Source: an uncultured Steroidobacteraceae bacterium (GTDB taxonomy: Bacteria > Pseudomonadota > Gammaproteobacteria > Steroidobacterales > Steroidobacteraceae). From it: a stretch of DNA of 64,000 nucleotides. Position numbers and translations under genes: made by a program. Numbering within the stretch: position 1 is the stretch's first letter; each line of letters begins with the position of its first letter. Shown here one piece after another: positions 4,697 to 62,196 of this stretch. A model generated the notes under the pieces. That model made no database searches, had not been told where the DNA came from, and saw only the letters and a program-made list of their open reading frames with translations. Where the stretch lies: assembly GCA_964508005.1 (NCBI GenBank), contig CAZDTG010000002.1:41307-105306 (forward strand), read 5' to 3'.

Positions 4697-5843
4697 GCTT
4701 GTGGGCGGCGATGGACAGCAGGCTCGCCCGTCCCCGCCCCGGCAGCAGCGGCAGCCAGTCGGACCTCAGCCGTCCAAAGACCGGCAGCGGCAGCCGGGCG
4801 CCCCGCGCCCGGCGATAATCCAGGGCCACGCCGAACGCGTTGCGGAATCCAAACCGTTTGGCGAGCTCCAGCGAGAGCGGTGAGCCGAGCATCCAGGGGT
4901 AGGCCACGGAAGTCGGCGCATAACCCAGGTGAGCCCGAAACTCCGTCCGGGCCAGCTCGAACTCGGAGCTCACCAGGCTCACGAAGTCGGTGTCGCTCAT
5001 GAGCTCGCCGCTCAGCACGGGGGAGCGCGCGCGGTACAGCCTGTGCAGCCGGGCGGCCCAATCTGAAAGCTCGAAGAAAGCTTCTCCCCCCGACTCGGTC
5101 ACCAGCCGGATGCAACATTCCGTCAGTCCCGGACTCTCCAGATAACGCGACGCCGCGGAGAGAAGGGGAGCCGCGCGGTAGATGGGTGCGCCCGGCGGCG
5201 GCGGCCCGAGCCGGTCGCCGGCAACCGTGTTGCACATCGGCCAATCGTACAAGTCGCGCTGCGCGAGCAACTTCGGCGTTGCAAAGCCGACGAGCTGGTC
5301 GGAAGTCGCCACCAACGCGTGGCGATGGGCATGCGATTGCACGTCCACCCGCCCGGACTCCGCGCATGCGCGCACCTGTTCCCAGCTCATGAAGCGCTGA
5401 CAGCCCGTCACGGCGGCCGGATTCATCCAGTACGAAGGCACGAAAAGGGTGGCGCGGGCGTCGAAGGCACGCAGCGCCGGCAAGGCGACTTCGTAAAAAC
5501 TGCTCCTCGCATCGTCAAACGTGAGCAGAACGCGCTTCTCGCGGGTGCCCGCCTTGCGCGAGGCCGCGGCCATGAACTCATCGAGGCCGATCGTCCGATA
5601 GCCATTGGAACGCAGGAATTCGAGTTCCCGGCTGAAGGCGGACGTTTCCACATCATGATAGATGAAGACCGGAATCTCGCCTCGGGACGGGGGTAACCCC
5701 AACAAAAACAGGGGATAACGTGTCCTGAGCACGTTCCCCGCGCCGCGCAGCGCGCGCTTGGCCGCGGCAAAGGCCACTTCGCCCTGCTGGTTGTACCGTG
5801 CATTCCACTTCATGACGCTGAAGAATTGCCCAACGTGAGCCAA
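4659..5843 (-). CDS. Polysaccharide deacetylase (NodB/CE4 family)
   Basis: Motifs IPVFIYHDV and LLTFDDARSSFYEVALPALRAFDARATLFV. The codon at 5843 is TTG; the alternative ATG is at 5813. Confidence 0.8.
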   Translation of the reverse strand: MAHVGQFFSVMKWNARYNQQGEVAFAAAKRALRGAGNVLRTRYPLFLLGLPPSRGEIPVFIYHDVETSAFSRELEFLRSNGYRTIGLDEFMAAASRKAGTREKRVLLTFDDARSSFYEVALPALRAFDARATLFVPSYWMNPAAVTGCQRFMSWEQVRACAESGRVDVQSHAHRHALVATSDQLVGFATPKLLAQRDLYDWPMCNTVAGDRLGPPPPGAPIYRAAPLLSAASRYLESPGLTECCIRLVTESGGEAFFELSDWAARLHRLYRARSPVLSGELMSDTDFVSLVSSEFELARTEFRAHLGYAPTSVAYPWMLGSPLSLELAKRFGFRNAFGVALDYRRARGARLPLPVFGRLRSDWLPLLPGRGRASLLSIAAHKLATFRGSQPLAH

Positions 5844-5878
5844 AGCTCGGGTCCTGTGAGTTCCTGACGACGCGCTTG

Positions 5879-5897
5879 GGCCTGCAAGTTGCAGGCC
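5879..5897. promoter_or_regulatory. 19-bp palindrome in the divergent EPS promoter region (candidate operator)
   Basis: ggcctgcaa-g-ttgcaggcc has perfect 9-bp arms. It lies between the minus-strand deacetylase operon and the plus-strand ydjC-like/GT4 genes. Confidence 0.3.
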
Positions 5898-6052
5898 GGG
5901 GGCCGAGGGTGGAAGACGGATGAGCCGCTGTCATTGCCGAGGCTCAGGCCAAGCGAGCTTGGGCTGAGCTTGTGTGCGGCACGGTTCGTGCTCCCGTCCC
6001 GTGCACCATTCGATAATAGATTTCAGGGCGCTCACAATCGAGTCACGCGCGC

Positions 6053-6922: not shown

Positions 6923-8158
6923 ATGCGCATCCTGAAAATCGTCCCGCAGGCGTTCTACACCGCCAGGGGCACACCGCTGAGCGCCTACCACCGCGCGCGT
7001 GAGCTCATTGCACGCGGTCACGAGGTCGACATCCTGACGTATGGGGTCGGGGGCGACCCGCCGAACTCCGCAGCCCGCGTGTTCCGCTCGCGCGGACCGC
7101 ATTTCAAGAGCTCCATTCCCGCCGGCCCCTCGCGGCTGAAGATCTGGTTCGATTTCCTGCTCTTCATCAATCTGCTGGCACACCTTTCCCGGCACCGCTA
7201 TGACGTTCTCTATGCGCACGAGGAGGGCGCGCTGCTGGCGCGGCTGGCCGGCGCGATCTTCCGCATACCTTACATCTACGACATGCATTCGAGCCTGCCA
7301 TTGCAGATCACCGATTGGAAATTCAGCACCCGCCCGTCTGTGATCGCAGCGTTTCGCTGGGTGGAGCGTCTGAGCGTCCGGGGCGCCTGTGCGGTGGTAG
7401 CGATCTCTCCCGCGGTCGCGCGGGCCGCGCATAGCGCCTGCCCCGACACTCCCTGTGTGCTGTTAGCCAATCACTTCGAGCTGAATCAGGTCGTGCCGCG
7501 GGAGGAGGTCGCGGCGGTGCGCTCCCGTCATGGAATTCCGCTCGAGCGCAAGCTCGTGGTGTATGCCGGCTCGTTCGTCGCGTTACAGGCGCTGGATCTG
7601 CTGCTCGATGCGGTTCCCAGTGTTCTTGCCGCCGTGCCCAACACGACGTTCCTGTTGGTGGGAGGCAGCGACCCTGAAATCGCAGCCCTGCGCTCCCAGG
7701 CGCAACGGATGGGCATCTCCGAGCAGGTCATCCTGGAGCGCAATCTGCCGCAGAGTGCCGTCCCGGCTTATCTCGAGGCCGCGGACGTGCTCGTGTCGCC
7801 GCGCATCCAAGGCATCAACTCCCCCGGCAAGCTCCTCAACTACCTGGCATCCGGCCGGCCCATCGTGGCCACCGACACCCTGGTCCACAATCAGCTCCTT
7901 ACGGACAAATCCGCGATCCTGACTCCTCCAACCGCGGCGGGGCTGGCTGCGGGCCTCGTAACGGCGCTCACCGATCCTGCTCGCGTCGCCGAGGTCACGG
8001 CGGGTGCCGCCAAGCTCCTCAGCCGTTACTCCAGCAAGGCGGATCGGGACGCTGCCTACGAGGCAGTTCTGAATGCAGCTCGAATGGCGGCGCTCTCCAG
8101 AAGCGCGCGCCGCAGCACGCCCTCCACGGGTAGCGAAGGACGACGACCCTCCCCATAA
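6923..8158 (+). CDS. Glycosyltransferase family 4
   Basis: N-terminus MRILKIVPQAFYTARGTPLSAYHRARELIARGHEVDILTYG. C-terminal region ...LVSPRIQGINSPGKLLNYLASGRPIVATD. Confidence 0.85.
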   Translation: MRILKIVPQAFYTARGTPLSAYHRARELIARGHEVDILTYGVGGDPPNSAARVFRSRGPHFKSSIPAGPSRLKIWFDFLLFINLLAHLSRHRYDVLYAHEEGALLARLAGAIFRIPYIYDMHSSLPLQITDWKFSTRPSVIAAFRWVERLSVRGACAVVAISPAVARAAHSACPDTPCVLLANHFELNQVVPREEVAAVRSRHGIPLERKLVVYAGSFVALQALDLLLDAVPSVLAAVPNTTFLLVGGSDPEIAALRSQAQRMGISEQVILERNLPQSAVPAYLEAADVLVSPRIQGINSPGKLLNYLASGRPIVATDTLVHNQLLTDKSAILTPPTAAGLAAGLVTALTDPARVAEVTAGAAKLLSRYSSKADRDAAYEAVLNAARMAALSRSARRSTPSTGSEGRRPSP

Positions 8159-8356
8159 GCCTCCCTGTCGCCGGAGGCTGCCGCAGCGACGAGCGCACCG
8201 GGGCGGTCGACCCTGTCGCTCCACCTGCGGGAGCGTTATGTCAACTTCCGGATGACGCCAAACAAAGACAGTTGTGCCGCATCTGAGATTTTTGGTCTCA
8301 TATGTGGCAGATGCTGGCTCGGGTCGGCGGTGACTGACGGCAAAAAAAGGGAGCGT

Positions 8357-8986
8357 ATGGATTCGACGCACGCGTTGTTGACGCCCGGATACATCGAGCA
8401 TGCCGAAACGGGGACCCACGAGCGCCTGGTGCAGCCGCGCGGCTCGTTCTTCCTGACCCTGTGCCCTGTTGCGGCACCGATTCCCGTACCACAGCCGACA
8501 TCGCCCGGACTGCAATCCTACCGATTCTTCTTCACGCGCCGCGGGGAGAACGGCCGGGAGCGCTGCTGGCTCCACTTCGGCCATTTCCGCGGGGCGGCGG
8601 AGGCCCGAAAATGGCTCGAGGTCCTGCGGCGCGTCTATCCGCGCGCGGTGATGCGTCAAGTCCCGCAGACACATGCGGCACCTCCGGCGCGTGAGTCGCA
8701 ACGCGAAACACTCAGCGACAGTCAGGTGTTGGCGCTTCTCGAGAAGAGCCGGAGCGACGACAACCGTCCTCACGAGGCATCACTCCCAGCGACGCAGCGA
8801 CGCGACGAACCGACCCTCGAAGACACCCTGAACGAGCTCCGGCAGAGTGCCTACGACGGTTTGGAAGCGGACGGCGATCTGAGCGCCACCGGAGTGCGGC
8901 ACTTGCGAGTGGAGCTGCAAAAGAAGTCACCCTTTTCGCAACAACAGAAGAGGCGCGGCGCTGCGGCACGTGCCCGCAAGTCATAG
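8357..8986 (+). CDS. Hypothetical protein (possible SPOR-like core, charged C-terminal tail)
   Basis: ATG 8357 is preceded by aagggag. The segment FFLTLCPV...YRFFFTRRGENGRERCWLHFGHFRGAAEARKWLEVLRRVYPRAVM has the hydrophobic/Gly/aromatic pattern of SPOR-type domains. I recognise no family with confidence. Confidence 0.45.
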   Translation: MDSTHALLTPGYIEHAETGTHERLVQPRGSFFLTLCPVAAPIPVPQPTSPGLQSYRFFFTRRGENGRERCWLHFGHFRGAAEARKWLEVLRRVYPRAVMRQVPQTHAAPPARESQRETLSDSQVLALLEKSRSDDNRPHEASLPATQRRDEPTLEDTLNELRQSAYDGLEADGDLSATGVRHLRVELQKKSPFSQQQKRRGAAARARKS

Positions 8987-9008
8987 GCGGGGTAGCGGAG
9001 ATTCCCAA

Positions 9009-9644
9009 GTGCGCAAATATCTCGACATGGCCAAGCGTTCCACGGACCGCGCGGCGACTGTGATGCAACGTCTGTTGGGTTTGTCCCGCGAGCAGCCTCC
9101 CGCTCCGGGGCCGACCGACCTCAACGAGCTGGTTCGCGAGATGGCCGAGCTCCTGCGCAGCTCGCTCGGGCGCGGCGTGTCGATACGAACCCGCCTGGGT
9201 GAGGATGTTGGCACGACCGCCGTCGATGCGGGCGGCCTCGAGACCTCGATTCTCAATCTGGCCGTAAACGCCCGCGAGGCCATGGGAGCCTCCGGAGAGC
9301 TGACGATCGAGACGAGCAACGCGTTACTCGATGAGGCCGACCCCTTCGGCCATCGAGAGGTGACACCTGGTCACTACGTCGTAATCGCCATGGGCGATAC
9401 CGGCGCGGGCATGTCGCGAGAGGTCATCGCGCGGGCGTGCGATCCGTTCTTTAGCGGGCCGCCAGGCGAGGGCACCGGCCTCGGCCTCTCGCAGGTCCGC
9501 GACTTCCTGCGCCAGGCGCGAGGACATATCGCCATAGAAAGTGAGCCGGGCATGGGAACGACGGTCCGCCTGTATCTGCCGCGCTCGACGCCCAGCGCCT
9601 CGGATCCTGTGTACCGCAGCTCGCAGATTTACGCGATCTCGTAG
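9009..9644 (+). pseudogene. Truncated sensor histidine kinase: HATPase_c domain only, no H-box or sensor
   Basis: N, G1 and G2 boxes are present (ILNLAVNAREAM, VIAMGDTGAGM, GEGTGLGLSQV). The sequence begins inside the second DHp helix (LDMAKRSTDRAATVMQRLLGLSREQPP). The space upstream is occupied by another frame's ORF. A GTG at 9009 with GGAG upstream could still give a 211-aa product. Confidence 0.7.
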
Positions 9645-9674
9645 AGGGACGACAACTGCACAGCTCGTGTCGTG

Positions 9675-9704
9675 CATATGTGTTAGGTTGTCCCACATAT
9701 GGAA
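9675..9704 (+). promoter_or_regulatory. Conserved leader motif/inverted repeat embedding the start codon of cassette copy A
   Basis: CATATGTG-N11-CACATATG is a perfect 8-bp inverted repeat, and the ATG at 9699 lies in the right arm. The 26-nt TGTGTTAGGTTGTCCCACATATGGAA matches 38697-38722 at 24/26 positions. No Shine-Dalgarno sequence is visible. Confidence 0.4.
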
Positions 9705-10502
9705 ACGGAACCCGCATCGTCAAGCCAGGCGCTGGCGGCGAGCCGCCAGTGGCTGCGGCCTCTGGTCAATGTATTGCTCCGGTGTGGCATCACCTGGCGC
9801 GAATTCGCGGAGCTTGCAAAGTCGGTGTACGTCGAGGTGGCCACGCAACGGTTCGGCAAGCGCGGCCGTCCCACGAACGTATCGCGCACCGCGGTCCTTA
9901 CCGGCCTGGCGCGGCGGGAAATACGCAGGCAGCGCGAACTGATCGAGGCAGGGCCGCAACCTCTGACGGGCTACGTCACGAAGGGCTCGCTGGTGCTGTC
10001 TGCCTGGCATCTCGATCCGCAGTTCCTCGATGCGGCGGGCAAACCGGCGCTGCTGCCCCTCGAGGGCGACGGCGCCTCGTTCGCGACATTGCTGCGGCGC
10101 TGTGGGGCAGGGGACGTGCGGCCCTCGACCCTGTTGAAGGAGCTGCGCAGCGCAGGTGCCGTCCGCAAGACGGCCGACGGGCGCCTCGAAGCGCTGCAAC
10201 GCATCTACATCCCACACACGATGGATGAGCAGCTCATTCGCTTGTGGGGCACGGTGCTCGCCGATGTCGCAACCACGTACGCTCATAACCTCACTCGCGA
10301 GAGGAAGCCTGCACGCTTCGAGCGCGCGGCGGTCAACGATCGGGTGCGCGCCAGCGCATTGCCTGAATTCCGGCAATTCCTCGATCAGGAGGGCCAGGCA
10401 TTTCTCGAGCGGCTCGACGCGTGGCTGACGCAGCACGAAGCGAAAGATGACTCGGACGCCACCATCCGCCTGGGCGCTGGCGTGTACCACATCGAGGACT
10501 GA
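9699..10502 (+). CDS. Uncharacterised 267-aa protein with N-terminal HTH-like segment (cassette gene 1, copy A)
   Basis: METEPASS...WREFAELAKSVYVEVATQRFGKRGRPTNVSRTAVLTGLARREIRRQRE... It has a clear paralog at 38717-39517. Coding is supported by conservation between copies with mostly synonymous or conservative differences. Confidence 0.8.
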   Translation: METEPASSSQALAASRQWLRPLVNVLLRCGITWREFAELAKSVYVEVATQRFGKRGRPTNVSRTAVLTGLARREIRRQRELIEAGPQPLTGYVTKGSLVLSAWHLDPQFLDAAGKPALLPLEGDGASFATLLRRCGAGDVRPSTLLKELRSAGAVRKTADGRLEALQRIYIPHTMDEQLIRLWGTVLADVATTYAHNLTRERKPARFERAAVNDRVRASALPEFRQFLDQEGQAFLERLDAWLTQHEAKDDSDATIRLGAGVYHIED

Positions 10503-10527
10503 GATCCGCATACAGGGCGGCCACGTT

Positions 10528-11946
10528 ATGTATAGGACTTTGACGATGAATCGCACGGGCGCCTTGATCCTGACGGTCGCGGCATTGCTGCTGGCAGCTT
10601 GCGGCGGCTCGGCGATCACCGCCGGCATACAGGGATCGGGCAGCCCGGCGCCCGCGGCAGCGGTCGGCCCCATCACGGGGTTCGGCAGCATCTTCGTGAA
10701 TGGGGTCGAGTACACCACCTCCGGCGCGCAGATTCTCATCGATGGCCAGGCCGGCACGGAGACGCAGCTGCAAACGGGCCAGGTGGTCGCCATCACAGGC
10801 AGCGTGAATTCGGGCGGCACTACCGGCACGGCGACGCAGGTCACCTTCAACGGCGATGCGCAAGGGCCGGTGGCGCAGATCGATCTCGTGGCCAACACGC
10901 TGGTGATCCTTGGGCAGAAGGTGCAGATAACGGCCTCCACGTTGTTGGACGCTACGATTCAACCTGCGGACCTCACGGGCCTGCAGACAGGCACGATCGT
11001 CGAAGTGAGCGGATTGGCCGATGCCTCGGGGACGATCGTAGCCTCGCGGCTCGACGTCAAGCCTGCCGGCAGCACATTCCAGGTCCGAGGTGTCCTCCAG
11101 GGGCTCGACACCACGACTCACACCTTCCAGATCAACGGACTCACGGTCGATTACGGCTCCGCGACGCCAACAGGCACACTCGCGAATGGCAGTACCGTGC
11201 AGGTGCAGGGAGCGGCCGTGGGCTCCACGGGGACGCTTCTCGCGACACATGTGGAGATCCTGCCGGGGCTGGGGACCTCCACGAACGAGCGCGCGGACAT
11301 CGACGGGATCATTACGGCCTTCACCTCGACTGCCGATTTCGTCGTTCAGGGCGAACACGTCACGACGGATGCCAACACACAGCTCGTGCTGCACGGCGTG
11401 AGCCTCGGCGTGAACATCGAAGTCGACGTGCAGGGGCAATTCAACTCGGCGGGGATGCTGCAGGCAACGAAGGTCGAGACGAGGCCGCGCAGCATGAGTC
11501 TCGTGCGCGGTCCGGTCGACGCGGTGAGCGCTTCCGGCCTGAGCATTCTCGGAGTCACCATCGTGACGAGCGCGTCGACGGGGCTCGAGGACAGGTCGAA
11601 CCAACACCTGCGGCAGCTCCGGCTGACCGATCTGCACGTCGGAGATTACGTCGAGGCCGATGGGACCGAAGGCCCGCCCGGCACGCTCGCCGCGGCGATC
11701 CTCACGCGCGAGAACACCAACTCCCGCGTTTATCTGCAGGGCCTCGCAGGCAATCTCGCGCAGCCCAGCTTCACCGTGCTCGGGGTCGGGGTGACCACCA
11801 CGTCGCAGACCCGGTTCGCCGGCCCCGGCGGAGCAGCTGGTGGCGCGGCAACGTTCTTCGCCCAGGCGGCGAACCGCATCGTCAAGGTGAGCGGGGTGTT
11901 CTCGAACGGAGTGCTCACGGCCGACCAGGTGCAGATCGAACAGTAG
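10528..11946 (+). CDS. Repeat-rich lipoprotein, about six tandem beta-type modules (resembles DUF5666-type repeats) (cassette gene 2, copy A)
   Basis: Signal peptide plus lipobox MYRTLTMNRTGALILTVAALLLAAC. The motif GFGSIFVNGVEY is followed by repeated ...G.VVEV.G.....G.I.A..V... modules. An alternative ATG is at 10546. The paralog is at 39550-40977. Confidence 0.8.
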   Translation: MYRTLTMNRTGALILTVAALLLAACGGSAITAGIQGSGSPAPAAAVGPITGFGSIFVNGVEYTTSGAQILIDGQAGTETQLQTGQVVAITGSVNSGGTTGTATQVTFNGDAQGPVAQIDLVANTLVILGQKVQITASTLLDATIQPADLTGLQTGTIVEVSGLADASGTIVASRLDVKPAGSTFQVRGVLQGLDTTTHTFQINGLTVDYGSATPTGTLANGSTVQVQGAAVGSTGTLLATHVEILPGLGTSTNERADIDGIITAFTSTADFVVQGEHVTTDANTQLVLHGVSLGVNIEVDVQGQFNSAGMLQATKVETRPRSMSLVRGPVDAVSASGLSILGVTIVTSASTGLEDRSNQHLRQLRLTDLHVGDYVEADGTEGPPGTLAAAILTRENTNSRVYLQGLAGNLAQPSFTVLGVGVTTTSQTRFAGPGGAAGGAATFFAQAANRIVKVSGVFSNGVLTADQVQIEQ

Positions 11947-53188: not shown

Positions 53189-54310
53189 ATGACTGACCCC
53201 AAACTCCCGAGCAGGTCAATGCTGCCGGTTCCCGTTCGTTACCAGCCCTCCATGGAGACGATCGGCGAGCACGAGGCGAAGACCATCCGGGGGATGATCG
53301 AAACGATGGACAGGATACAGAGCATTGTCGCCGAGGACATCGGCCATGCGAAGCGCGGCGTGCATGCCAAAGCGCACGGCCTGCTCGTCGGAGAGTTGGA
53401 AGTGCTTCCGGATCTACCCCTCGTGCTGGCGCAAGGACTATTCGCCGCCCCGCAGAATTATCCTGCGGTATTGCGCCTGTCCACCATTCCCGGTGACGTG
53501 TTGGATGATGCGGTCTCCGTGCCGCGAGGCGCGGCGCTGAAGATCGTTGGCGTCAACGGTGCGCGCGTGCCGGGTTCGGAGCAAGAGGTTACGCAGGACT
53601 TCCTGTTCGTCAACGGAAAGGCGTTCGGGGCGGCCACCCCGGACGCCTTTCTCCGCAATCTGAAGCTCTTGGCCGCCACGACCGACAAGGCGCCCGGCTT
53701 GAAGAAGGTGCTGTCCTTCGTGGTCCGCGGCCTGGAGAAGATCGTGGAAGGCGCCGGCGGACAAAGCCCGACGCTTTTGACTTTGGGAGGGTACCCGGAA
53801 ATCAACATCCTGGGCGACGAGTTTTATAGCCAGGGGCCCATCCTCTACGGCGACTACATCGCCAAGCTCGCTCTGAAACCCTTCTCGGACAATCTGCGTG
53901 CCTTGACTCGGCAACCGCTCAAACTGTCCGGCCACCCCGACGGTATTCGACAGGCTGTCGTCGAGTTCTTTCAGACCAACTCGGCCGTATGGGACATACA
54001 GGTGCAATTGTGCACCAACCTCGAGACCATGCCGATCGAGGACGCGGCAGCAACGTGGCCGGAAACGGAAAGCCCCTATCTATCCGTCGCGCGGCTGCAC
54101 ATGCCGGCGCAGGACGCTTGGCGCGCCGACAGGGTAGAACTGGTGGACGAACGGATGTCCTTCTCCGCTTGGCACGCGCTCGCGGCGCACCGCCCCCTAG
54201 GTGGGATCATGCGAGTCCGACGAGCCGTCTACGCCGCGGCCGCCCGGTTCCGTGTTGACTACAACCATCGGACTCTCGTGGAACCGCGCAGCGCCGCCGA
54301 TCTCTCGTGA
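53189..54310 (+). CDS. Catalase-related small haem protein (catalase-family core only)
   Basis: The distal His region is KRGVHAKAHG. The proximal Tyr region is RVRRAVYAAAARFR. At 373 aa it is much shorter than a canonical catalase. Confidence 0.75.
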   Translation: MTDPKLPSRSMLPVPVRYQPSMETIGEHEAKTIRGMIETMDRIQSIVAEDIGHAKRGVHAKAHGLLVGELEVLPDLPLVLAQGLFAAPQNYPAVLRLSTIPGDVLDDAVSVPRGAALKIVGVNGARVPGSEQEVTQDFLFVNGKAFGAATPDAFLRNLKLLAATTDKAPGLKKVLSFVVRGLEKIVEGAGGQSPTLLTLGGYPEINILGDEFYSQGPILYGDYIAKLALKPFSDNLRALTRQPLKLSGHPDGIRQAVVEFFQTNSAVWDIQVQLCTNLETMPIEDAAATWPETESPYLSVARLHMPAQDAWRADRVELVDERMSFSAWHALAAHRPLGGIMRVRRAVYAAAARFRVDYNHRTLVEPRSAADLS

Positions 54311-54544: not shown

Positions 54545-54706
54545 GCAATCCCGCATCGGCTTTTTGTTCCGCGGGTCAGTCCCGGCCTGGTGTTCGCGCA
54601 GACTCAATACGACGCAAAGGCAAGCGCGAACCGGTACTCTATAGTGAGCGGTGCACGCATGTACGGGCTCGAGCCCTACGCGTACCTGCGGCACCTCCTT
54701 GAAGGT
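54545..54706 (+). mobile_element. IS66-family transposase C-terminal fragment
   Basis: Frame 2 reads ...HRLFVPRVSPGLVFAQTQYDAKASANRYSIVSGARMYGLEPYAYLRHLLE. This matches the conserved IS66 TnpC tail (..nwLF.gS..g...a..ySli.tAk.nGlePyaYL..vL). There is no upstream body. Confidence 0.55.
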
Positions 54707-54810: not shown

Positions 54811-54986
54811 CCGGGCTCAAGCCCCTTCGTCGACCTGCACGAGATTCTCGATCACGGCACTCGCCACTTCCGATTGCCGGCGACCGCCACTCGAGAAGGC
54901 GAAAGAGGAGGGCGAGATCGCGGATCCCGATGAGGCCGTCCGCCAGCAAGTTGAGGGGAAGGTCGCGTAAGAGAGAGAATAGAGCA

Positions 54987-56651
54987 ATGCCGAAGATTCT
55001 CTTGTTTCGCCTCCCTCACGATTTGAGCGCGAGGCTCGTGTCGGAACTTTCTCGCGCAGGGTACGAAGCTGCGGCGCCGGAATCCGCGGATGTGCGCACA
55101 GTTCTTCAGCATGAGCCTGATCTGATCCTGCTGCAGACGGATGTACGCACACTCGACTGCTGTGGTCTTGTCACTCAGCTCAAAGGCAACGAGGCCACAG
55201 CGCCAGTGAAGATAATCCTTCTGGCCGATGGTGGGCCTTTGGAGCGCAGCCGTGCCCTCGACCTGGGTGCGGACGACGTCCTGAGCATTCCCTTTGAGCC
55301 CGTTGAGCTCTTCGCCCGAATCCGGGCGCACCTGCGAGAGAAAGCGCCGGACGATCGCTTGCGTTTGGAGGTGCTCGACGCCAAGAGGAAAGAGCTCGAA
55401 GCTGAAGCGGCGCTGACAGCAATCGTCGCGCAAAAAGAGACGGGGAAGAGACGCTGGATTGCACTTGGGGTGGTAACCGCTCTAGCGGTGATCGGCGTAG
55501 GTATTGCTGTTCGAAACGCCCAGGTAAGCAGCAAGTCAAACGCGAGCCTGGTTTTGCAGCTGGAGAGTCTCCGCTCGCAGATACTCACTCGAGACCAGCT
55601 TCTGGAACGCGCCCAAAAGAGCCGCGAGGCACGCGATCAGGAATTGACAGTTTCGGTGAGCAAGCAATTGGAAGCATTGCGGGCAGAGAGCGCAGACCTG
55701 CGGAACAAGATCTCCACGTCGGCCGGGCCCTCCCTGTCTGATCTTGACAACCGTTTGAAGCAAACCGACTCCCGGATCGGAAAACTCGAGAACGAGTCGC
55801 GCATCGCACAAGAGATCGTCCGGGATTATTCAAACAGCGTTTGCCTGATCTACGCGATTCTCGCTTTTCACGACAAGAAGACTGGCGCTCTGCTCAAGTT
55901 CGCCGGCATTGACGCGAATGGCAATCCCGTCGCCGATAGCAAGGGAAAGCTCATTGTCACCACGGAAGGCGGCGGCCCGCCCGTGCACATAGACGTATTT
56001 GGAAGCGGCTTTCTGATCGATACCGCCGGTCACATCCTCACCAATCATCACGTACTCGAACCATGGTGGCACAACGCTGAGGCGATCCCTGTGCCCAGCG
56101 ATTCTTTCGAGCCGACCATCTGGTCGATGTGGGCTTATTTTCCGGGGAACGAAACGCCAATGCCTCTGCGCGTGCAAGGCTTGAGTGAGGACTCTGACCT
56201 TGGGCTGGCAGCAGTCGATCTGCCTGAGAGCCATCCGAGGCCTGTCACAATCGATCCGCAAGTCGCCATTTCCGGCAGCCCGGTGGTCTTGATTGGATAC
56301 CCCACCGGACTCGAAGGGATTATTGCCCGTATCGACGAGCCCACGCTCAAACGGATCGCACAGGCAACCGGGAACAGGACGGAGGATCTCGTGCAAGAGC
56401 TTGCACGAAGAAAGCTGATCCGACCGCTGGTGACGCAGGGCCATCTTGGCGTTGTTGGCCCCGATCGACTGGTCTACGACGCACAAACAACTTCTGGCGG
56501 GTCCGGTGGCCCAGTATTCAATGCCAGCGGAAAAGTGATCGGAGTGAACTTCGCCATCCTGTCGGGCTTCTCTGGCTCGAATTTCGCTGTCCCCATCTCA
56601 CACGCTGCAAAGATGCTTGAAACGTCAAAATCCGCGAAAGCAGCGCGTTGA
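54987..56651 (+). CDS. Pseudo-receiver / TM / coiled-coil / trypsin-like (S1, HtrA-type) serine protease fusion
   Basis: ATG 54987 (MPKILLF...). Domains in order: a CheY-like fold with degenerate active-site positions, one TM span (RRWIALGVVTALAVIGVGIAV), a roughly 120-aa heptad-rich region, and a protease triad context (LTNHHV, DSDLGLAAV, TSGGSGGPVF). The first 112 codons of the track ORF overlie IS debris and are rejected. Confidence 0.85.
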   Translation: MPKILLFRLPHDLSARLVSELSRAGYEAAAPESADVRTVLQHEPDLILLQTDVRTLDCCGLVTQLKGNEATAPVKIILLADGGPLERSRALDLGADDVLSIPFEPVELFARIRAHLREKAPDDRLRLEVLDAKRKELEAEAALTAIVAQKETGKRRWIALGVVTALAVIGVGIAVRNAQVSSKSNASLVLQLESLRSQILTRDQLLERAQKSREARDQELTVSVSKQLEALRAESADLRNKISTSAGPSLSDLDNRLKQTDSRIGKLENESRIAQEIVRDYSNSVCLIYAILAFHDKKTGALLKFAGIDANGNPVADSKGKLIVTTEGGGPPVHIDVFGSGFLIDTAGHILTNHHVLEPWWHNAEAIPVPSDSFEPTIWSMWAYFPGNETPMPLRVQGLSEDSDLGLAAVDLPESHPRPVTIDPQVAISGSPVVLIGYPTGLEGIIARIDEPTLKRIAQATGNRTEDLVQELARRKLIRPLVTQGHLGVVGPDRLVYDAQTTSGGSGGPVFNASGKVIGVNFAILSGFSGSNFAVPISHAAKMLETSKSAKAAR

Positions 56652-56921: not shown

Positions 56922-57413
56922 CTACGGGATAATGCCGAGTCTGATCTTGGTCCTGATCTCACTGAGCCAGACCTCGCGGTAATGCTGAGGGAGTGCGGAG
57001 AAGACCGCCGGCTGCGCGCCGCAGCCCTGCAGAAGTCGCTCGAGGGAGATCACGGCATCCAGCCAGGCGAGAGTGTTGCAGCCAACGAGTGCCGCCTTGT
57101 CGGTAGTGGTGACCCAGAGAAGGTTGGCACTCGGGCTTTCGTGTGCCTTCAGCCATGTGAGAAGGTCCCGCTCGCCCGGGTCGAGTGTCAGAAGCCGCGG
57201 GTGGCCAGTGGCGAACGTGGCCAGATCCCGTTTGGACGGGGTGTGCACGGCCGCGAGCCCGGCTTTCAACTCCGGCAAAGGTACTGGAACTCTTCTCGGG
57301 TTGAGCGGATCGCCCGTCTGCGTCTCCGAGACCACCGCGCTCACGGTCTCGATGCGGTATGCGTTCGCGAGGAGCTTCCAGCATCCGAGCTCGAAGGCCG
57401 TGAACACCATCAT
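56922..57413 (-). CDS. Hypothetical protein, possibly PIN-like
   Basis: 163 aa, 26 nt downstream of the XRE-ImmA gene. LDPGERDLLTWL and VTTTDKAAL resemble PIN acidic motifs. An in-frame LDT lies immediately upstream of the ATG, reachable only from a CTG (57422) or ATT start. Confidence 0.55.
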   Translation of the reverse strand: MMVFTAFELGCWKLLANAYRIETVSAVVSETQTGDPLNPRRVPVPLPELKAGLAAVHTPSKRDLATFATGHPRLLTLDPGERDLLTWLKAHESPSANLLWVTTTDKAALVGCNTLAWLDAVISLERLLQGCGAQPAVFSALPQHYREVWLSEIRTKIRLGIIP

Positions 57414-57439: not shown

Positions 57440-58546
57440 TTAGAATTCAAACGGGGCCGCGAGCTCGTAGGAGGCAAACAGGGCTGCCAGCTGCTCCCCA
57501 TCCAGAGCGAGTGTCTTCGCGACCTTCCGCGCCGACAACCGCCCGCGGTCAAGCGCGCTATGGAGCGCACGCACGAAAGACTCCGAGTAGAGCCGAGGCA
57601 GTGTCTGCTTCACGGTCACGGGCCGGCGGACCAGCGCCTCGTGCACCTCATCGTCGATACGCCCGAGCCCGAGGAGCCGCCAGCCGAGCGCCGAGGTCGA
57701 CACACGAAGGCGCTCTGCGACCGCGCGAAGTCGCGCGACGTCTGCAGGCTCGGTGACGAGCTGGTCCAGAACCACTCGTGGCATGAGCAGCGAGGAGGCG
57801 AAGTTGTTGGCGAGTTGTTCGACCCGCTTGCGGCTGGGAGTTCCACGGTCATCCGTGGTGTTGGATTCGCGGCGCTCAGGCTCCATCGCATCCCACGTGA
57901 GCGCGTGAAACAACTCGTGCGCGAGCGTGTATGCGCGGCGCGTCTCGCCCTCCCGGCGATTGAGCAGGATGCAGGTCAGGTCTTCCAGATGGCACGTCGC
58001 GCCTGACAGAGAACCGTCGCCAAATACGCCCGGATCAACCATGAGCACCGGGATGTCGAGCTCTCGTTCGATCGTTTCGAGCAGACTCCCGGCCGGAACC
58101 TCGCCGAGGCCGAGCTCCTGAGCGAGTCTCTCCGCCCGCGCCTGTGAAGCTTCGAACGTCGACTCGCTCGACAGCCGAAGCCCGCGCTTGAGCGCGCTCG
58201 CATCTGACGGCGTTTGGTCACGCAGCCAGCGCAGTATGCCAACGAGCTGATTCGTGCGGTTTTCGAAGTCGTCCAGCGTCTCGTCCCGAACCTCCGGCGA
58301 TACGCGCCAGTTGTACTTCGCCTCGCCGGCGACGGAGAAGGGATCGACAAAGTAGTCGATGGGCCGGTCGAAGGCGTCCGAGAGGATCACCAACTCATCC
58401 GGCTTCACGCCGCGCTTGCCATTCTCCAGGTCCGACACGGACTGGCGATTCTCCAGCCCGAGCAGGGCGGCGAGATCGTCTTGCGTACGGCCGGCTGCCT
58501 CGCGGGCGGCGCGCACGCGAAACCCAATATGGCGAGTTGATTCCAT
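57440..58546 (-). CDS. XRE-family HTH fused to ImmA/IrrE (COG2856) zinc metallopeptidase
   Basis: ATG 58546 follows GGAGGAAG. The HTH is IGFRVRAAREAAGRTQDDLAALLGLENRQSVSDLENGKR. The HEXXH motif is in YTLAHELFHALTW. The first 124 codons of the track ORF are rejected. Confidence 0.85.
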   Translation of the reverse strand: MESTRHIGFRVRAAREAAGRTQDDLAALLGLENRQSVSDLENGKRGVKPDELVILSDAFDRPIDYFVDPFSVAGEAKYNWRVSPEVRDETLDDFENRTNQLVGILRWLRDQTPSDASALKRGLRLSSESTFEASQARAERLAQELGLGEVPAGSLLETIERELDIPVLMVDPGVFGDGSLSGATCHLEDLTCILLNRREGETRRAYTLAHELFHALTWDAMEPERRESNTTDDRGTPSRKRVEQLANNFASSLLMPRVVLDQLVTEPADVARLRAVAERLRVSTSALGWRLLGLGRIDDEVHEALVRRPVTVKQTLPRLYSESFVRALHSALDRGRLSARKVAKTLALDGEQLAALFASYELAAPFEF

Positions 58547-58576
58547 CGGCTCTTCCTCCTGTCCACAGTATACGAC

Positions 58577-58625
58577 TTGCGAACATCGAAACGCAAGTTT
58601 ACATGGCAAGGCAGTATTTGCAAGA
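58577..58625. promoter_or_regulatory. Candidate operator half-sites between the divergent XRE-ImmA gene and the 290-aa gene
   Basis: CTTGCG (58577-58582) and CGCAAG (58593-58598) form a 6-bp inverted repeat with a 10-nt spacer. A third related site, TTGCAAG, is at 58619-58625. Confidence 0.35.
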
Positions 58626-58735
58626 TCGGAGGGCTGAGTACCAGAAGTTGGGTACCCACTGTCTGTGCCCAAGAGCTGTCGGTGGCGCGAGATTGGCGGC
58701 TTCGCTATTGCGTGGCATTGAAAGGACGGTCGTAT

Positions 58736-59608
58736 ATGAGCATTACTGATGGTGAGGGCTATATCGTGGCCGAGTTCCGGCCCCAAGGTGTCTATGGGGT
58801 ACGTGGTCTCGGAATGAACCGCCTCCAGTTCGGACTGGAGTTCCAGATCAACGCCAGTCGTGCCGGGGGCGCTGCGCTGAGCAGTGCCGTCTGCTTCGTT
58901 TGGGCCGGCCGAACGCAAGCCGATGTGAGGCCTCTCGGCGTCGCGACTATGGAAACGAGCTGGTACGTGGAAACTACAGACTACGCTCGCCGTGACACGG
59001 TGTCTGCGTATTTAGACTTGAGCTTCGAGCAGTTGGAAGCGCTCGAGCGAATGCGCGAAGGCGGATCGCTCTTTTTCAAGTTGGATCTGCGTGTCTTGGT
59101 CCATTCACGTCAACGTGGTCTACAGCGGGGTGATCAGCAGTCGTGGTTCGAGGCGTCGTTGAGCACTTGGTCGAAGGTTCTTGAGCAGATCGGATACAGC
59201 GAAACACTGCTGCTCGGCCTAGAATTGCCGGTGCAAGGAGTGCCAACAGAGCTGCATGGTGCAGCGAGTCAGTTACGCGAGGCGCACCGGGATCTGATAG
59301 CGGGTCGCTTTGACGGCACGGTCGCTCGAGTACGGCTGGCGATAGATACGGTGCTCGGCTTTGATAGCCGACCTCAGGTACTTCAGGAGTTTTCTGGAAG
59401 CAGCGCGAGTCGCGAACAGATGTCAAAACGTTCCCGAGCAGACTTGGTCCGCATCGCGGTTCGACACTACACACACTTGGCACATCATGTCGACGATTCC
59501 GGCGCACCGGAAACCTTTAGCAGACACGATGCTCAATTTGCGCTGGCTGGAGCGACGGCAGCGATATGGGATGCTGTTACCGAGTTCCGCAGGAGCCGAA
59601 GCCAATAG
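58736..59608 (+). CDS. Hypothetical 290-aa protein (beta-rich N-half, helical C-half with Rx4-6H motifs)
   Basis: ATG 58736 follows aaaggacgg. I recognise no family. The C-terminal LVRIAVRHYTHLAHH contains RIAVRH (Rx4H) and RHYTHLAH (Rx6H). It is divergent from the XRE-ImmA gene. Confidence 0.55.
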   Translation: MSITDGEGYIVAEFRPQGVYGVRGLGMNRLQFGLEFQINASRAGGAALSSAVCFVWAGRTQADVRPLGVATMETSWYVETTDYARRDTVSAYLDLSFEQLEALERMREGGSLFFKLDLRVLVHSRQRGLQRGDQQSWFEASLSTWSKVLEQIGYSETLLLGLELPVQGVPTELHGAASQLREAHRDLIAGRFDGTVARVRLAIDTVLGFDSRPQVLQEFSGSSASREQMSKRSRADLVRIAVRHYTHLAHHVDDSGAPETFSRHDAQFALAGATAAIWDAVTEFRRSRSQ

Positions 59609-59702: not shown

Positions 59703-59923
59703 TGCCCAATAGCTATCGCAAGGCCCGGACGGCGCGCCATAGTCTCGACATTACATAATATACATTATGCGCAATTGAGATACCGCCTGTGGCGCAAGCG
59801 GTACCGCTGATCGGATCGCACCTTATATACAGCGCCACGCCCCGCAATCTCCCGCGCCCCTTTAGTACAGTCCCGGCCGGCCACGCATTGTGGCCAGGCC
59901 CACGGTATGTGGTGAGGGACTGC

Positions 59924-60688
59924 ATGCGGATCCTGGTGGTCGAAGATAACGAGCTGGTTGCGGACGCGATCGTGCGCGGTCTCGGCATGGCGGGGTTTGC
60001 GGTCGATCGGGCGGCGAACGCGGAAAGCGCGGCGGCGGCGCTGGCTGCCGAGCATTTCGACCTCGCGCTGCTTGATATCGGGTTGCCCGGGACCGATGGA
60101 CTCAGCCTGTTGCGCCGCCTCAGACGCGATGGCAAGACCATTCCCGTCATGGTGCTCACGGCACGGGACACGCTGGCCACCAAGATCGAGGCGCTGGATC
60201 TGGGCGCCGATGACTTTCTGATGAAGCCATTCGAGCAGGCCGAGCTCGCGGCTCGCTGCCGGGCGTTGATTCGCCGCTCGAACCTGAGCACGAGTGGCCA
60301 GTTGAGCCTGGGGCGGCTGCGCATCGACCTCAACGGGCGGCAGCTGCAAATCGACGCGGCGGCTGTGGAGTTGACCGGCCGTGAATGGGCTGTGCTGGAA
60401 TGCCTGGCGCTGAGCGCCGGCCGTCTGGTCTCCAAGGAACGCCTGCAACAGGCGATCGCGAGCTGGGATCAGGCGCTGACACCGAATGCGGTCGAGGTCT
60501 ATGTCTCGCGCTTGCGCACGAAGCTCGCCGACGCCGCGACCATTCGTGTCGTGCGCGGGCTCGGTTACCGGCTCGAGCTCGATGACCCGAAGTCCGGCCG
60601 CCCGCAGAAGCTTGAACGATCGAGGGCCGAGCCGTTGCGGCCCGATCAGAACCCGCGCGAGCGCGACTCCGCTGCCGATCCCCAATGA
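59924..60688 (+). CDS. OmpR/PhoB-family response regulator
   Basis: MRILVVEDNELVADAI, LALLDIGLPGTDG, VLTARD, FLMKPF and a winged-helix region (VYVSRLRTKL...VRGLGYRLE). A roughly 35-aa charged C-terminal extension follows. The stop overlaps the kinase ATG (ATGA). Confidence 0.9.
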   Translation: MRILVVEDNELVADAIVRGLGMAGFAVDRAANAESAAAALAAEHFDLALLDIGLPGTDGLSLLRRLRRDGKTIPVMVLTARDTLATKIEALDLGADDFLMKPFEQAELAARCRALIRRSNLSTSGQLSLGRLRIDLNGRQLQIDAAAVELTGREWAVLECLALSAGRLVSKERLQQAIASWDQALTPNAVEVYVSRLRTKLADAATIRVVRGLGYRLELDDPKSGRPQKLERSRAEPLRPDQNPRERDSAADPQ

Positions 60689-62196
60689 CCCGCGCGCCGG
60701 CACGAACTCCGTCCATCCGCCATCGGCTGCTCTTTTTTCTGCTGCCGCCCCTGACTGCCTTGCTGGTGGTCGGCGTTTTCGTGGATTACCGCGCCGCATT
60801 GATCTTCGCGCGCAAGACCTATGATCAACGCCTCACCGATGCGGTCCTCGCAGTAGCCGGGCAGATCGATGCGGCAGGCGTCGAGGCGGCGGCGCAACGG
60901 TTACCCCGGCGGCTGCCTACCTGGGGTGTGGATCGCGATCCCGACTTCTCATACGCGATCCTGGGGCCACGGGGACAGCTGATTGCAGGCAACCCCCTGC
61001 TCTCGCGCCCGACTGCCAATGCGCCTCGGGCCGGCAGCAACCCCTCCTTCGCCGACGCTACGCTCGGCGGAAAAAACGTCCGCGTGGCGAGCTACGAGCT
61101 GCGCACCGCGGCCGGAGCCACCACGGTCAAAGTTGCCGGCGAAGACGACTCACGCACGGGCCCGGCGCACTTCGTTCTGGGCAGCACCTGGCTCATCGGC
61201 TTCATCCAACTCGACATCACCCTCCTCCTCGTCTGGATCGGCGTGCATTTCGGGCTGAAGCCGCTGCTCGACGTACGGCGCGACATCGAAGCACGCTCGG
61301 CGCGCGAGTTGCGGCCGTTGGAGCTGGCGAGCGTGCCCACCGAGGTGCGTCCGCTGGTCGAAGGACTCAACATGCTGTTCGAGATGCTGGCGGAGGCTGC
61401 GCGCTCGCAACGGCAATTCGTAGCCGACACGGCGCACCAGCTGCGCACGCCCATTACGGGCCTCCTGGGCCATCTCGACGTTCTGATGCGGGAGCCGGCC
61501 GCGGCGGCACTGCATGACCGTCTGGCCTCCCTACATGAAGGGATGAGCGGCCTGGCGCATTCCGCGAACCAGTTGCTGGCGCTTGCCCGAGCGGAGCCCT
61601 CCGCGAACCTTGCCGATCCTTTCGAAAGTGTTGACGTGAAGGCCCTCGTGGAACGGGTGCTGGAACGCAACATCGACCGCTCGGTCGAGGCGCGGCTGGA
61701 CCTCGGTGCCGAGGCCCAAGCCACGCAAGTGACGGGCAGCGTACGTCTTCTCGAGGACCTGCTCGGCAATCTGATCGATAACGCGCTGCATTACACGCCA
61801 GCGGGCGGTCATGTCACGGTCCGGTGTGGCTCGGATGACAGCAAGCCCTATCTCGAAGTCGAGGACGACGGGCCGGGCATCCCGGCGGCCGAGCGCTCGC
61901 GGGTGCGCGAGCGTTTCTATCGCATGCCGGGATCCTCGGGGCACGGCTGCGGATTGGGGCTCGCGATCGTGGATGAGATCGCTCGCCTGCATGGCGCCGA
62001 ATTGACGATCGAGGCCGGCGCGAAGGGTCGCGGCGCGAGGATGAGAGTGAGCTTTCGCGGCCGCCCCGCTGTCGACTCTCCTCGCGCTGAGCCAGCCACG
62101 ACGCGGCGTAACAACACCGGTGGTGCCAAGGTGACGCCCGCCGCCGGCGCAGCCGGCCTGGAACTGAGAACCGCGTCGCAATCCGGAGGTGTCTGA
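60685..62196 (+). CDS. Sensor histidine kinase (QseC/PmrB-like, two TM)
   Basis: The H-box is FVADTAHQLRTPITGL, the N box NLIDNALHYT, G1 VEDDGPGIP and G2 GCGLGLAIV. The tail is about 50 aa and low-complexity. The stop overlaps an ATG opening the fimT-like frame (TGATG). Confidence 0.9.
   Translation: MTRAPARTPSIRHRLLFFLLPPLTALLVVGVFVDYRAALIFARKTYDQRLTDAVLAVAGQIDAAGVEAAAQRLPRRLPTWGVDRDPDFSYAILGPRGQLIAGNPLLSRPTANAPRAGSNPSFADATLGGKNVRVASYELRTAAGATTVKVAGEDDSRTGPAHFVLGSTWLIGFIQLDITLLLVWIGVHFGLKPLLDVRRDIEARSARELRPLELASVPTEVRPLVEGLNMLFEMLAEAARSQRQFVADTAHQLRTPITGLLGHLDVLMREPAAAALHDRLASLHEGMSGLAHSANQLLALARAEPSANLADPFESVDVKALVERVLERNIDRSVEARLDLGAEAQATQVTGSVRLLEDLLGNLIDNALHYTPAGGHVTVRCGSDDSKPYLEVEDDGPGIPAAERSRVRERFYRMPGSSGHGCGLGLAIVDEIARLHGAELTIEAGAKGRGARMRVSFRGRPAVDSPRAEPATTRRNNTGGAKVTPAAGAAGLELRTASQSGGV

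Follow-up and report, generated by a model that had tools for sequence, protein, structure and literature searches.

HtrA proteases are normally trimers, and one of them, DegS, combines an N-terminal membrane anchor with a periplasmic catalytic domain. MarP (Rv3671c) of Mycobacterium tuberculosis is a membrane-anchored S1 protease without a PDZ domain whose catalytic domain also lies outside; its anchor is a four-helix CvpA-type membrane domain, and it carries neither a helical stalk nor a cytoplasmic receiver (REC) or FHA domain. The outputs known, to our knowledge, for response regulators and FHA proteins are cytoplasmic, such as DNA binding, enzymes, and motors. The definitions and mechanisms of pseudo-receivers, which keep the REC fold without the acceptor aspartate and other catalytic residues, have been reviewed (PMC4395418, PMC12632262), and the known examples (among them RitR, ShkA REC1, and PleD D2) are soluble proteins that drive DNA-binding, kinase, or cyclase outputs. 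Here, we describe a gene at positions 54987..56651 (+) of a 64,000-nucleotide stretch of DNA from an uncultured Steroidobacteraceae bacterium (assembly GCA_964508005.1, contig CAZDTG010000002.1; the whole stretch is called the window below), which encodes a pseudo-receiver and an HtrA-like protease predicted to lie on opposite sides of the inner membrane.

The only architecture that we found listed earlier with a phospho-signaling reader domain N-terminal to a trypsin-like protease is the FHA-FHA-Trypsin protein NP_811686.1 of Bacteroides thetaiotaomicron, which appears in a 2008 survey of prokaryotic serine proteases together with the Colicin_V-Tryp architecture (PMC2605481). The comparison with it is one of domain order only; its head is FHA rather than REC, and the survey gives one instance of it and neither topology nor function. 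A first, sequence-only reading of the window had stated that it knew of no characterized example of the architecture, and our literature search, although incomplete in coverage, likewise found no characterized protein that joins a REC, pseudo-receiver, or FHA domain to a trypsin or HtrA protease. The text supplementary files of the survey of aspartate-less receivers (ALR) contain no trypsin or peptidase effector. Judging from the literature found, a pseudo-receiver and an HtrA-like protease in a transmembrane arrangement have not been described before. We favor the reading that the protein is a single-pass inner-membrane protease that would be controlled or positioned from the cytoplasm without phosphotransfer, and we give this reading about an even chance (a probability of roughly 0.5).

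Four-part anatomy of the protein

Translation from the ATG at 54987 to the stop codon at 56649-56651 (+) gives a protein of 554 residues, composed of a pseudo-receiver, a transmembrane (TM) helix, a helical stalk, and an HtrA-like protease, and more than 120 homolog clusters at 82-94% identity have the same architecture and a length of ~554 residues. This is the domain order that the sequence-only reading had described, and the Pfam, NCBIfam, and PDB matches and the AlphaFold model all agree with it. The ATG lies at the same point in every locus of the upstream alignment, and a purine-rich run stands immediately 5' of it in the window. A longer open reading frame (ORF), initiated by a GTG at 54651, was ruled out as the gene because the homolog clusters are ~554 residues long and the aligned loci share the ATG.

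The N-terminal 120 residues (54987..55346, +) form the cytoplasmic pseudo-receiver. The Pfam Response_reg model matches residues 21-113 with an E value of 5e-5 and 23.9 bits, which is under the gathering cut-off of 30.2. The NCBIfam models of PhoB, PleD, MtrA, and OmpR match the receiver region at E 1e-14 to 1e-11 (PhoB at 7e-14), and PleD structures in the PDB do so at E 3e-16. Both receiver domains of PleD match the window REC, with 33 and 30 bits; the second aligned region we take to be the PleD adaptor receiver (D2). An AlphaFold2 model, computed from a 37-sequence alignment, shows the (beta-alpha)5 fold, with block-mean pLDDT values mostly of 76-91 and one block at 68. The receiver assignment is therefore solid despite the sub-threshold Pfam score.

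The residues needed for phosphotransfer were located in a MAFFT alignment with CheY and PhoB and in a second, larger alignment. In both, R8-L9 (55008..55013, +) replaces the acidic pair D12/D13 of CheY, and R8 is present in 118 of 121 aligned close homologs, the remaining three being gapped at this position. The phospho-acceptor (CheY D57) is replaced by Q50 (55134..55136, +), which is kept in 120 of the 121, and the conserved lysine (CheY K109) by I101 (55287..55289, +), which is kept in 117 and occupies this position in both alignments. A HMMER alignment to PleD independently pairs Q50 with the acceptor aspartate and I101 with the lysine. The aromatic switch, Y106 of CheY, aligns with V98. 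The sequence-only reading had proposed that every phospho-site position is substituted, and the alignments bear this out, for R8/L9 in MAFFT and for Q50 and I101 in MAFFT and against PleD, so that proper alignment does not restore an acceptor aspartate. Its assignment of an alanine to the conserved threonine/serine position (CheY T87) holds in part, as the two alignments differ between L79 and A80 at this position, both of them residues without a hydroxyl. Measured against a functional REC domain (PF00072), the fold is present, and the acceptor aspartate, acidic pair, threonine/serine, aromatic switch, and lysine are all absent. This corresponds to the published definition of a pseudo-receiver or aspartate-less receiver, a recognizable receiver whose phosphotransfer residues are gone (PMC12632262), and by its residues, the N-terminal domain is a pseudo-receiver predicted to be incapable of phosphorylation. 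What sets it apart from the known pseudo-receivers, with which it also shares a conserved alpha4-beta5-alpha5 region, is an output that would be a protease across the membrane. Compared with the OmpR/PhoB-family receivers, which supply the top NCBIfam matches (PhoB, MtrA, and OmpR) and whose member PhoB has a nearly identical alpha4-beta5-alpha5 pattern, the window protein lacks the winged-helix DNA-binding domain and has lost the acidic pair, aspartate, threonine, aromatic switch, and lysine.

Helix alpha5 of the pseudo-receiver continues into a juxtamembrane helix (residues 121-156; 55347..55454, +), and AlphaFold draws a single helix over residues 105-151. It leads to the one TM helix (residues 157-179; 55455..55523, +), which is supported by hydropathy, positive-inside flanks, and the AlphaFold helix at 158-181. 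The segment 157-175 is the sole hydrophobic one, with a Kyte-Doolittle value of 2.45, and the hydropathy of the 554-residue protein gave no signal-like N-terminal segment. Four lysines or arginines fall within the 15 residues before the TM helix and one within the 15 residues after the 23-residue TM window. From the positive-inside flanks, the single TM helix, and the lack of a signal peptide, we infer that the N terminus is cytoplasmic and the protease periplasmic, which fits the topology that had been proposed for the protein.

The periplasmic part begins with a helical stalk (residues 180-284; 55524..55838, +) that is partly heptad-like. The sequence-only reading had seen here a long heptad-like coiled coil of about 120 residues. 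The region is indeed helical, and a 3.5-residue periodicity exceeds that of shuffled sequences at residues 224-284 (p ~0.02) and 248-284 (p ~0.01), but the stalk is ~105 residues long, AlphaFold divides it into three helices (202-219, 224-244, and 248-284), and the stalk region as a whole gives p 0.36. A continuous canonical coiled coil over residues 183-284 was dropped because the periodicity test fails for the whole region.

The C-terminal domain (residues 285-545; 55839..56621, +) is a PDZ-less HtrA-like serine protease. Pfam Trypsin_2 matches residues 339-520 with E 2e-20, and hhalign of the family profile to DegS gives a probability of 97.7% and places H355, D404, and S506 on the DegS triad, so that the protease of S1/HtrA type with an intact H, D, and S that had been read from the sequence stands. 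In Foldseek, the top matches were HtrA1, DegS-deltaPDZ, Deg1, and DegP at E ~1e-13 and 17-20% identity, with TM-scores of 0.72-0.81 measured against protease-domain-only chains. The triad residues are assigned from the family and DegS alignments: His355 (56049..56051, +) is followed by a family-specific E-P-W-W motif, of which P359 and W360 are invariant in the family, Asp404 lies at 56196..56198 (+), and Ser506 lies within GGSGGP at 56502..56504 (+). Among 82 diverse members, H355 and D404 never vary, and S506 is kept in at least 90%. A family-specific insertion in the second barrel (residues 440-480; 56304..56426, +), modeled by AlphaFold as helices 442-446, 451-461, and 465-474, consists of extra residues relative to DegS and carries a LARRKLIRP motif that is kept across the family.

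Of the features that define the HtrA/DegP/DegS proteases (MEROPS S1C), the chymotrypsin fold with its triad is present and the one or two C-terminal PDZ domains are missing: neither Pfam nor NCBIfam matched a PDZ domain, and the protein ends 9 residues past the protease domain. The NCBIfam Do/HtrA models score far under their cut-off (52 bits vs 416). For both reasons, and going by sequence and predicted structure, we file the domain as HtrA-like, homologous to HtrA and DegS and expected to work in the same way, but not a member of the HtrA family. With DegS, DegP, and HtrA1, it shares the chymotrypsin-fold protease domain and the aligned triad, and with DegS also an N-terminal membrane anchor ahead of a catalytic domain predicted to be periplasmic. 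It differs from the HtrA proteases in the EPWW motif, in the insertion of ~40 residues, in the stalk of ~105 residues, and in the 156-residue cytoplasmic signaling domain, and as it has no PDZ domain, the known peptide-sensing activation mechanism cannot apply to it. Like MarP, it would be a trypsin-fold protease that lacks a PDZ domain, is tied to the cytoplasmic membrane, and has its catalytic domain outside; the multi-pass CvpA-type anchor of MarP is the difference, together with the REC/FHA head and stalk that MarP lacks.

Conservation of the pseudo-receiver and head exchange in the family

Over the 121 close homologs, the mean column entropy is lowest in the REC domain (0.37), followed by the protease and the stalk (both 0.49), the juxtamembrane helix (0.52), and the TM helix (0.70). 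Conservation is thus higher in the pseudo-receiver than in the catalytic domain. Residues R8, Q50, C58, C59, and I101 are fixed or nearly fixed. The Cys58-Cys59 motif (55158..55163, +) lies in the beta3-alpha3 loop and at the start of alpha3, outside the dimer face, and is present in 121 of 121 close homologs; some of the degenerate-REC groups also have CC there, or C followed by G or R. Across 56 of these degenerate-REC relatives (groups B and C below), the best-conserved part of the REC domain is the alpha4-beta5-alpha5 face (residues 84-120, RSRALDLGADDVLSIPFEPVELFARIRAHLRE; 55236..55346, +), with entropies of 0.9-1.5 for alpha4, the alpha4-beta5 loop, beta5, and alpha5, against 2.3-2.6 for alpha1 and alpha2. 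Each of R87, D92, G94, D97, P102, E107, R111, R113, and R117 is kept in at least 80% of the same 56 sequences, and the whole segment is a close parallel of the alpha4-beta5-alpha5 segment of PhoB in the alignment. In OmpR/PhoB regulators, this face is the dimer interface promoted by phosphorylation. According to a 2025 review, many solved pseudo-receiver structures are dimers without phosphorylation, and the region of the beta3-alpha3 loop and alpha3 becomes more important for function in such domains (PMC12632262). The pseudo-receiver is under strong purifying selection, chiefly at the alpha4-beta5-alpha5 face and at the Cys-Cys motif.

The window protein belongs to a much larger family. Among 1.84 billion representatives of clusters at 50% identity, scanned exhaustively with HMMER, 317 matched at E<1e-30. 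In nearly all full-length members, ~150 cytoplasmic residues are followed by a single TM helix, a helical region, and the protease. What varies is the head. On 82 representatives, Pfam found the FHA-like Yop-YscD_cpl domain 44 times, FHA 35 times, and Response_reg 8 times. We classified the heads of 188 full-length members, reading the REC types by their residues at the positions of CheY D12, D13, D57, T87, Y106, and K109. FHA heads account for 112 of the 188 (~60%). Canonical REC heads (group A, signature D-D-D-G-Y/F-K) number 16, degenerate REC heads that retain the aspartate (group B, signature E/D-x-D-V-A-R) number 39, and REC heads without the aspartate (group C) number 17, with other heads in the remaining 4. 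Group C, to which the window protein belongs, has Q, G, E, or N at the acceptor position and I, L, or F in place of the lysine. One and the same cassette of TM helix, stalk, and protease is thus found fused to FHA, canonical REC, or degenerate REC within one large family.

A neighbor-joining (NJ) tree of the protease domains placed groups B and C in one intermixed clade and group A in a separate clade among the FHA types. This would suggest that REC was fused twice independently and degenerated progressively in the B/C lineage, a conclusion that is tentative because the tree is a crude NJ tree on identity distances without support values. The family is abundant in soil metagenomes and turns up in contigs labeled with several phyla (Acidobacteriota, Gemmatimonadota, and Pseudomonadota). 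Whether the architecture might be common and already annotated had been raised in the sequence-only reading; it is common in metagenomes, but it carries only generic automatic names ([quoted passage not shown] at JGI and "trypsin-like peptidase domain-containing protein" at NCBI), and no curated family was found for it. This under-annotation is due to the REC score, which falls below the Pfam threshold.

Canonical and degenerate REC members also differ in the genes beside them. In four of four distinct loci, a histidine kinase lies next to the canonical-REC member or within ~1.5 kb of it: at locus L015, the gene of a kinase of AhpC-TSA/HisKA/HATPase_c type shares 14 nt with the start of the protease gene; at L017 and L024, the same kinase type lies ~1.4-1.6 kb downstream; and at L026, a PAS-HATPase_c kinase lies 130 nt upstream. 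In contrast, no conserved kinase or other conserved neighbor accompanies the degenerate-REC members in the loci examined, and no adjacent kinase was found at the group B member P0304 or the distant group C member P0332. Nor does a kinase-partnered output describe the window gene, as there is no conserved kinase beside it or its close homologs; the OmpR-type pair of response regulator and histidine kinase at 59789-62196 of the window is a separate, complete system.

The AhpC-TSA kinase has a peculiarity of its own. In three distinct loci, its gene contains a single in-frame TGA at the first cysteine of a W-C-x-x-C motif (…FFRSTVW*PSC…), namely at L015 (gene 4689-6014, TGA 4875-4877), L017 (near 9061), and L024 (gene 7734-9035, TGA 7935-7937), and gene callers cut the interrupted kinase into two ORFs. 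A conserved hairpin with a GGUCG loop and one compensatory pair change lies 17 nt 3' of the TGA and resembles a bacterial SECIS element. We regard the kinase as a candidate selenocysteine-containing sensor kinase. At L017, L018, and L024, a divergent Omp85-family gene, a gene for a 541-562-residue protein without a family match, and a TLC/MFS-like transporter gene recur upstream of the canonical-REC protease, and a rhodanese gene recurs downstream; these neighbors are hints that the canonical branch may be tied to outer-membrane biogenesis or to sulfur and redox metabolism. Two unrelated FHA-type members have a PMT/PMT_2 gene (ArnT-like glycosyltransferase) adjacent or close by (L021, 7626-8885; L022, 8516-10012), which at L021 overlaps the protease stop codon, and the FHA branch may thus have a link to envelope glycosylation.

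Proposed control from the cytoplasm and competing readings

We propose that the cytoplasmic head would be the input module of an inside-out device. An input is the most economical reading of the head, since every type of head in the family is a module of cytoplasmic phospho-signaling and the canonical REC comes with a kinase. In the canonical relatives, phosphorylation of the REC domain would change the association of its alpha4-beta5-alpha5 face, and in the FHA relatives, phospho-Thr binding would take the role of REC phosphorylation. The signal could then pass along the helix that continues alpha5, through the TM helix and the periplasmic stalk, to the packing of the protease domains and, with it, to their activity. 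In the window clade, the phospho-switch would have been replaced: the OmpR/PhoB-like dimer face may provide a constitutive or partner-dependent association, with a second copy of the protein or with another protein, and the vicinal cysteines, which are fixed and lie beside the former active site, may serve as a thiol trigger that responds to redox state or metal. The substrates would presumably be envelope proteins. The sequence-only reading had already suggested control from inside by protein-protein contact, and it now has indirect comparative support in the swapping of heads and in the kinase beside the canonical REC in four of four loci, while the contact itself, like the rest of the mechanism, is something we infer.

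Several points weigh against control from the cytoplasm: (i) no partner or substrate has been identified for any member of the family; (ii) the topology is based on hydropathy and the positive-inside rule; (iii) the stalk is modeled by AlphaFold with low confidence at residues 170-222 and is not a clean coiled coil, which makes rigid signal transmission uncertain; (iv) a trimeric HtrA unit and a dimeric association through the REC alpha4-beta5-alpha5 face are mismatched; (v) the second cysteine of the CC motif is not kept throughout the degenerate-REC groups; and (vi) the conservation of the dimer face is equally compatible with a purely structural role in oligomerization.

The last of these points leads to the main rival, in which the pseudo-receiver would be a relic kept for oligomerization and anchoring in the cytoplasm and the protein a constitutively active, membrane-tethered housekeeping protease for envelope quality control that passes no signal across the membrane. 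The conserved part of the REC domain is exactly the dimerization face, no partner gene is conserved, the protease gene seems to be solitary and to have a conserved leader of its own, and proteases of the HtrA type, to which Foldseek relates the fold, are classic envelope quality-control enzymes. However, the heads found in the family are all phospho-signaling modules and not generic oligomerization domains, and a mere anchor does not sit well with a pseudo-receiver that is conserved above the catalytic domain and has an invariant Cys-Cys pair outside the dimer face. We therefore regard a purely structural role as possible but rather doubtful.

It is also conceivable that information flows the other way, with the periplasmic protease sensing an envelope cue (e.g., unfolded proteins) and altering the pseudo-receiver or releasing it onto a cytoplasmic target, as regulated proteolysis cascades do. 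DegS-type proteases, which the window protease resembles in structure, are periplasmic stress sensors, and single-domain receivers and pseudo-receivers can work by protein-protein interaction (PMC12632262). Nevertheless, the protein has no output domain and no identified cytoplasmic target, a kinase beside the canonical REC implies that information flows into the REC domain, and FHA heads, as phospho-peptide readers, are inputs. Signaling from outside to inside is thus improbable.

That the family represents a new class of inside-out transmembrane signaling proteases, in which a cytoplasmic REC or FHA head would control an HtrA-like protease across the membrane through a continuous helix, and that in the window clade a thiol switch (Cys58-Cys59) or a partner-binding switch on the pseudo-receiver would replace phosphotransfer, is a speculative proposal that we hold with low confidence. 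A thematic hint is that canonical relatives pair with a thioredoxin-fold kinase that apparently contains selenocysteine.

Genomic setting and meaning

A conserved operon with any neighboring gene was ruled out by two comparisons. When 10 flanking proteins of the window were compared by tblastn with 10 related loci, no neighbor proved to be shared, the matches being limited to low-identity paralogs (SDR, histidine kinase), and an all-against-all comparison of the neighboring ORFs of 12 loci found synteny among near-identical genomes only. Among the flanking genes of the window is a fused gene of an XRE-type helix-turn-helix (HTH_3) and a Peptidase_M78 (ImmA/IrrE) domain, as identified by Pfam (57440-58918, -). 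It had been suggested as a conserved partner to look for in a neighborhood survey, but it is missing beside every homolog examined, and no flanking gene recurs. Because the neighborhood is not conserved, the XRE-ImmA gene is considered a chance neighbor of the protease gene, possibly in an island of its own. It matches the RmrA and CapP models of PADLOC (E 1e-19 to 1e-18) and is followed on the same strand by an ORF of 163 residues (56922-57413, -) without a family match, and the two may form a toxin-antitoxin or defense-like module unrelated to the protease gene. The ORFs at 53189-54310 (+, 373 residues) and 58577-59608 (+, 343 residues) have no Pfam or PADLOC match, and the latter has a GC content at third codon positions (GC3) of 0.60, below that of its surroundings.

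At three related loci, L011, L012, and L013, which carry an identical protease (P0021), the upstream side is shared and the downstream side differs, at ~9665-11500. At L011, the gene is followed by a tRNA-Glu gene (9991-10066) and then a TonB-dependent receptor gene, and at L012 and L013, by different integrase-led islands, one with AbiEii, HTH, and DUF2924 genes and the other with an RHS/YD-repeat toxin gene; no tRNA was detected at the L012 or L013 junction. The junction looks like an integration hotspot, with the protease gene on its conserved side and the variable islands beyond the gene. A tRNA-linked island in the window was rejected, as no tRNA was found in the window. The gene itself occurs at 75-85% protein identity in contigs of 53% to 64% GC content (53% for L005 and L006; 62-64% for the window, L001, L003, and L004), with the GC of the gene at 0.56-0.63 and contig labels of Acidobacteriaceae or Ca. 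Angelobacter on the one hand and Gammaproteobacteria or Burkholderiaceae metagenome-assembled genomes (MAGs) on the other. This suggests horizontal spread, unusually strong constraint, or both, although MAG binning errors are possible.

It is very improbable that the protease acts as a defense or mobile-element effector together with XRE-ImmA in an anti-phage or toxin-antitoxin-like island, given that the PADLOC matches of XRE-ImmA, a weak similarity of the protease domain to RT-Protease_XI (E 1e-10), the presence of the gene in genomes of differing composition, and the integrase-bearing insertions downstream in some loci are set against the absence of XRE-ImmA beside any homolog examined, the position of the variable islands at L011-L013 beyond the gene, the lack of a reverse transcriptase (RT) domain, and a match that spans only model positions 349-505 of 506, the generic protease part. 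Membership of the protein in the PADLOC RT-Protease type XI was rejected, its similarity being that of a generic protease.

The 5' side of the gene is compatible with independent expression. Some ~70-110 nt 5' of the start codon (…GATGAGGCCGTCCGCCAGC.AGTTGAGCGGAAGGT.GC…) are conserved among loci with unrelated upstream genes, and in the window, this leader or promoter-proximal sequence occupies 54920..54986 (+). No conserved secondary structure was found in the leader, the whole window gave no Rfam match, and the 680-nt upstream gap showed no sigma-70-like promoter or + strand terminator. A regulatory RNA in this gap was ruled out, as there is no Rfam match and no conserved leader structure. 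The leader may act as a promoter or operator carried along with the gene, and the arrangement would fit a self-contained transcription unit.

If the protease is controlled from the cytoplasm by a thiol or partner-binding switch, the window protein would provide a kinase-independent link between the state of the cytoplasm and proteolysis in the periplasm. A REC or pseudo-receiver domain wired through the membrane to a protease in the periplasm would add a new class of output to both two-component and Ser/Thr-phospho signaling, and it would be one of the rare cases in which bacteria control envelope proteolysis from the inside. The family also offers a natural series, from canonical REC with a kinase through degenerate REC that retains the aspartate to REC that has lost it, which makes the switching of pseudo-receivers without phosphorylation testable (PMC12632262).

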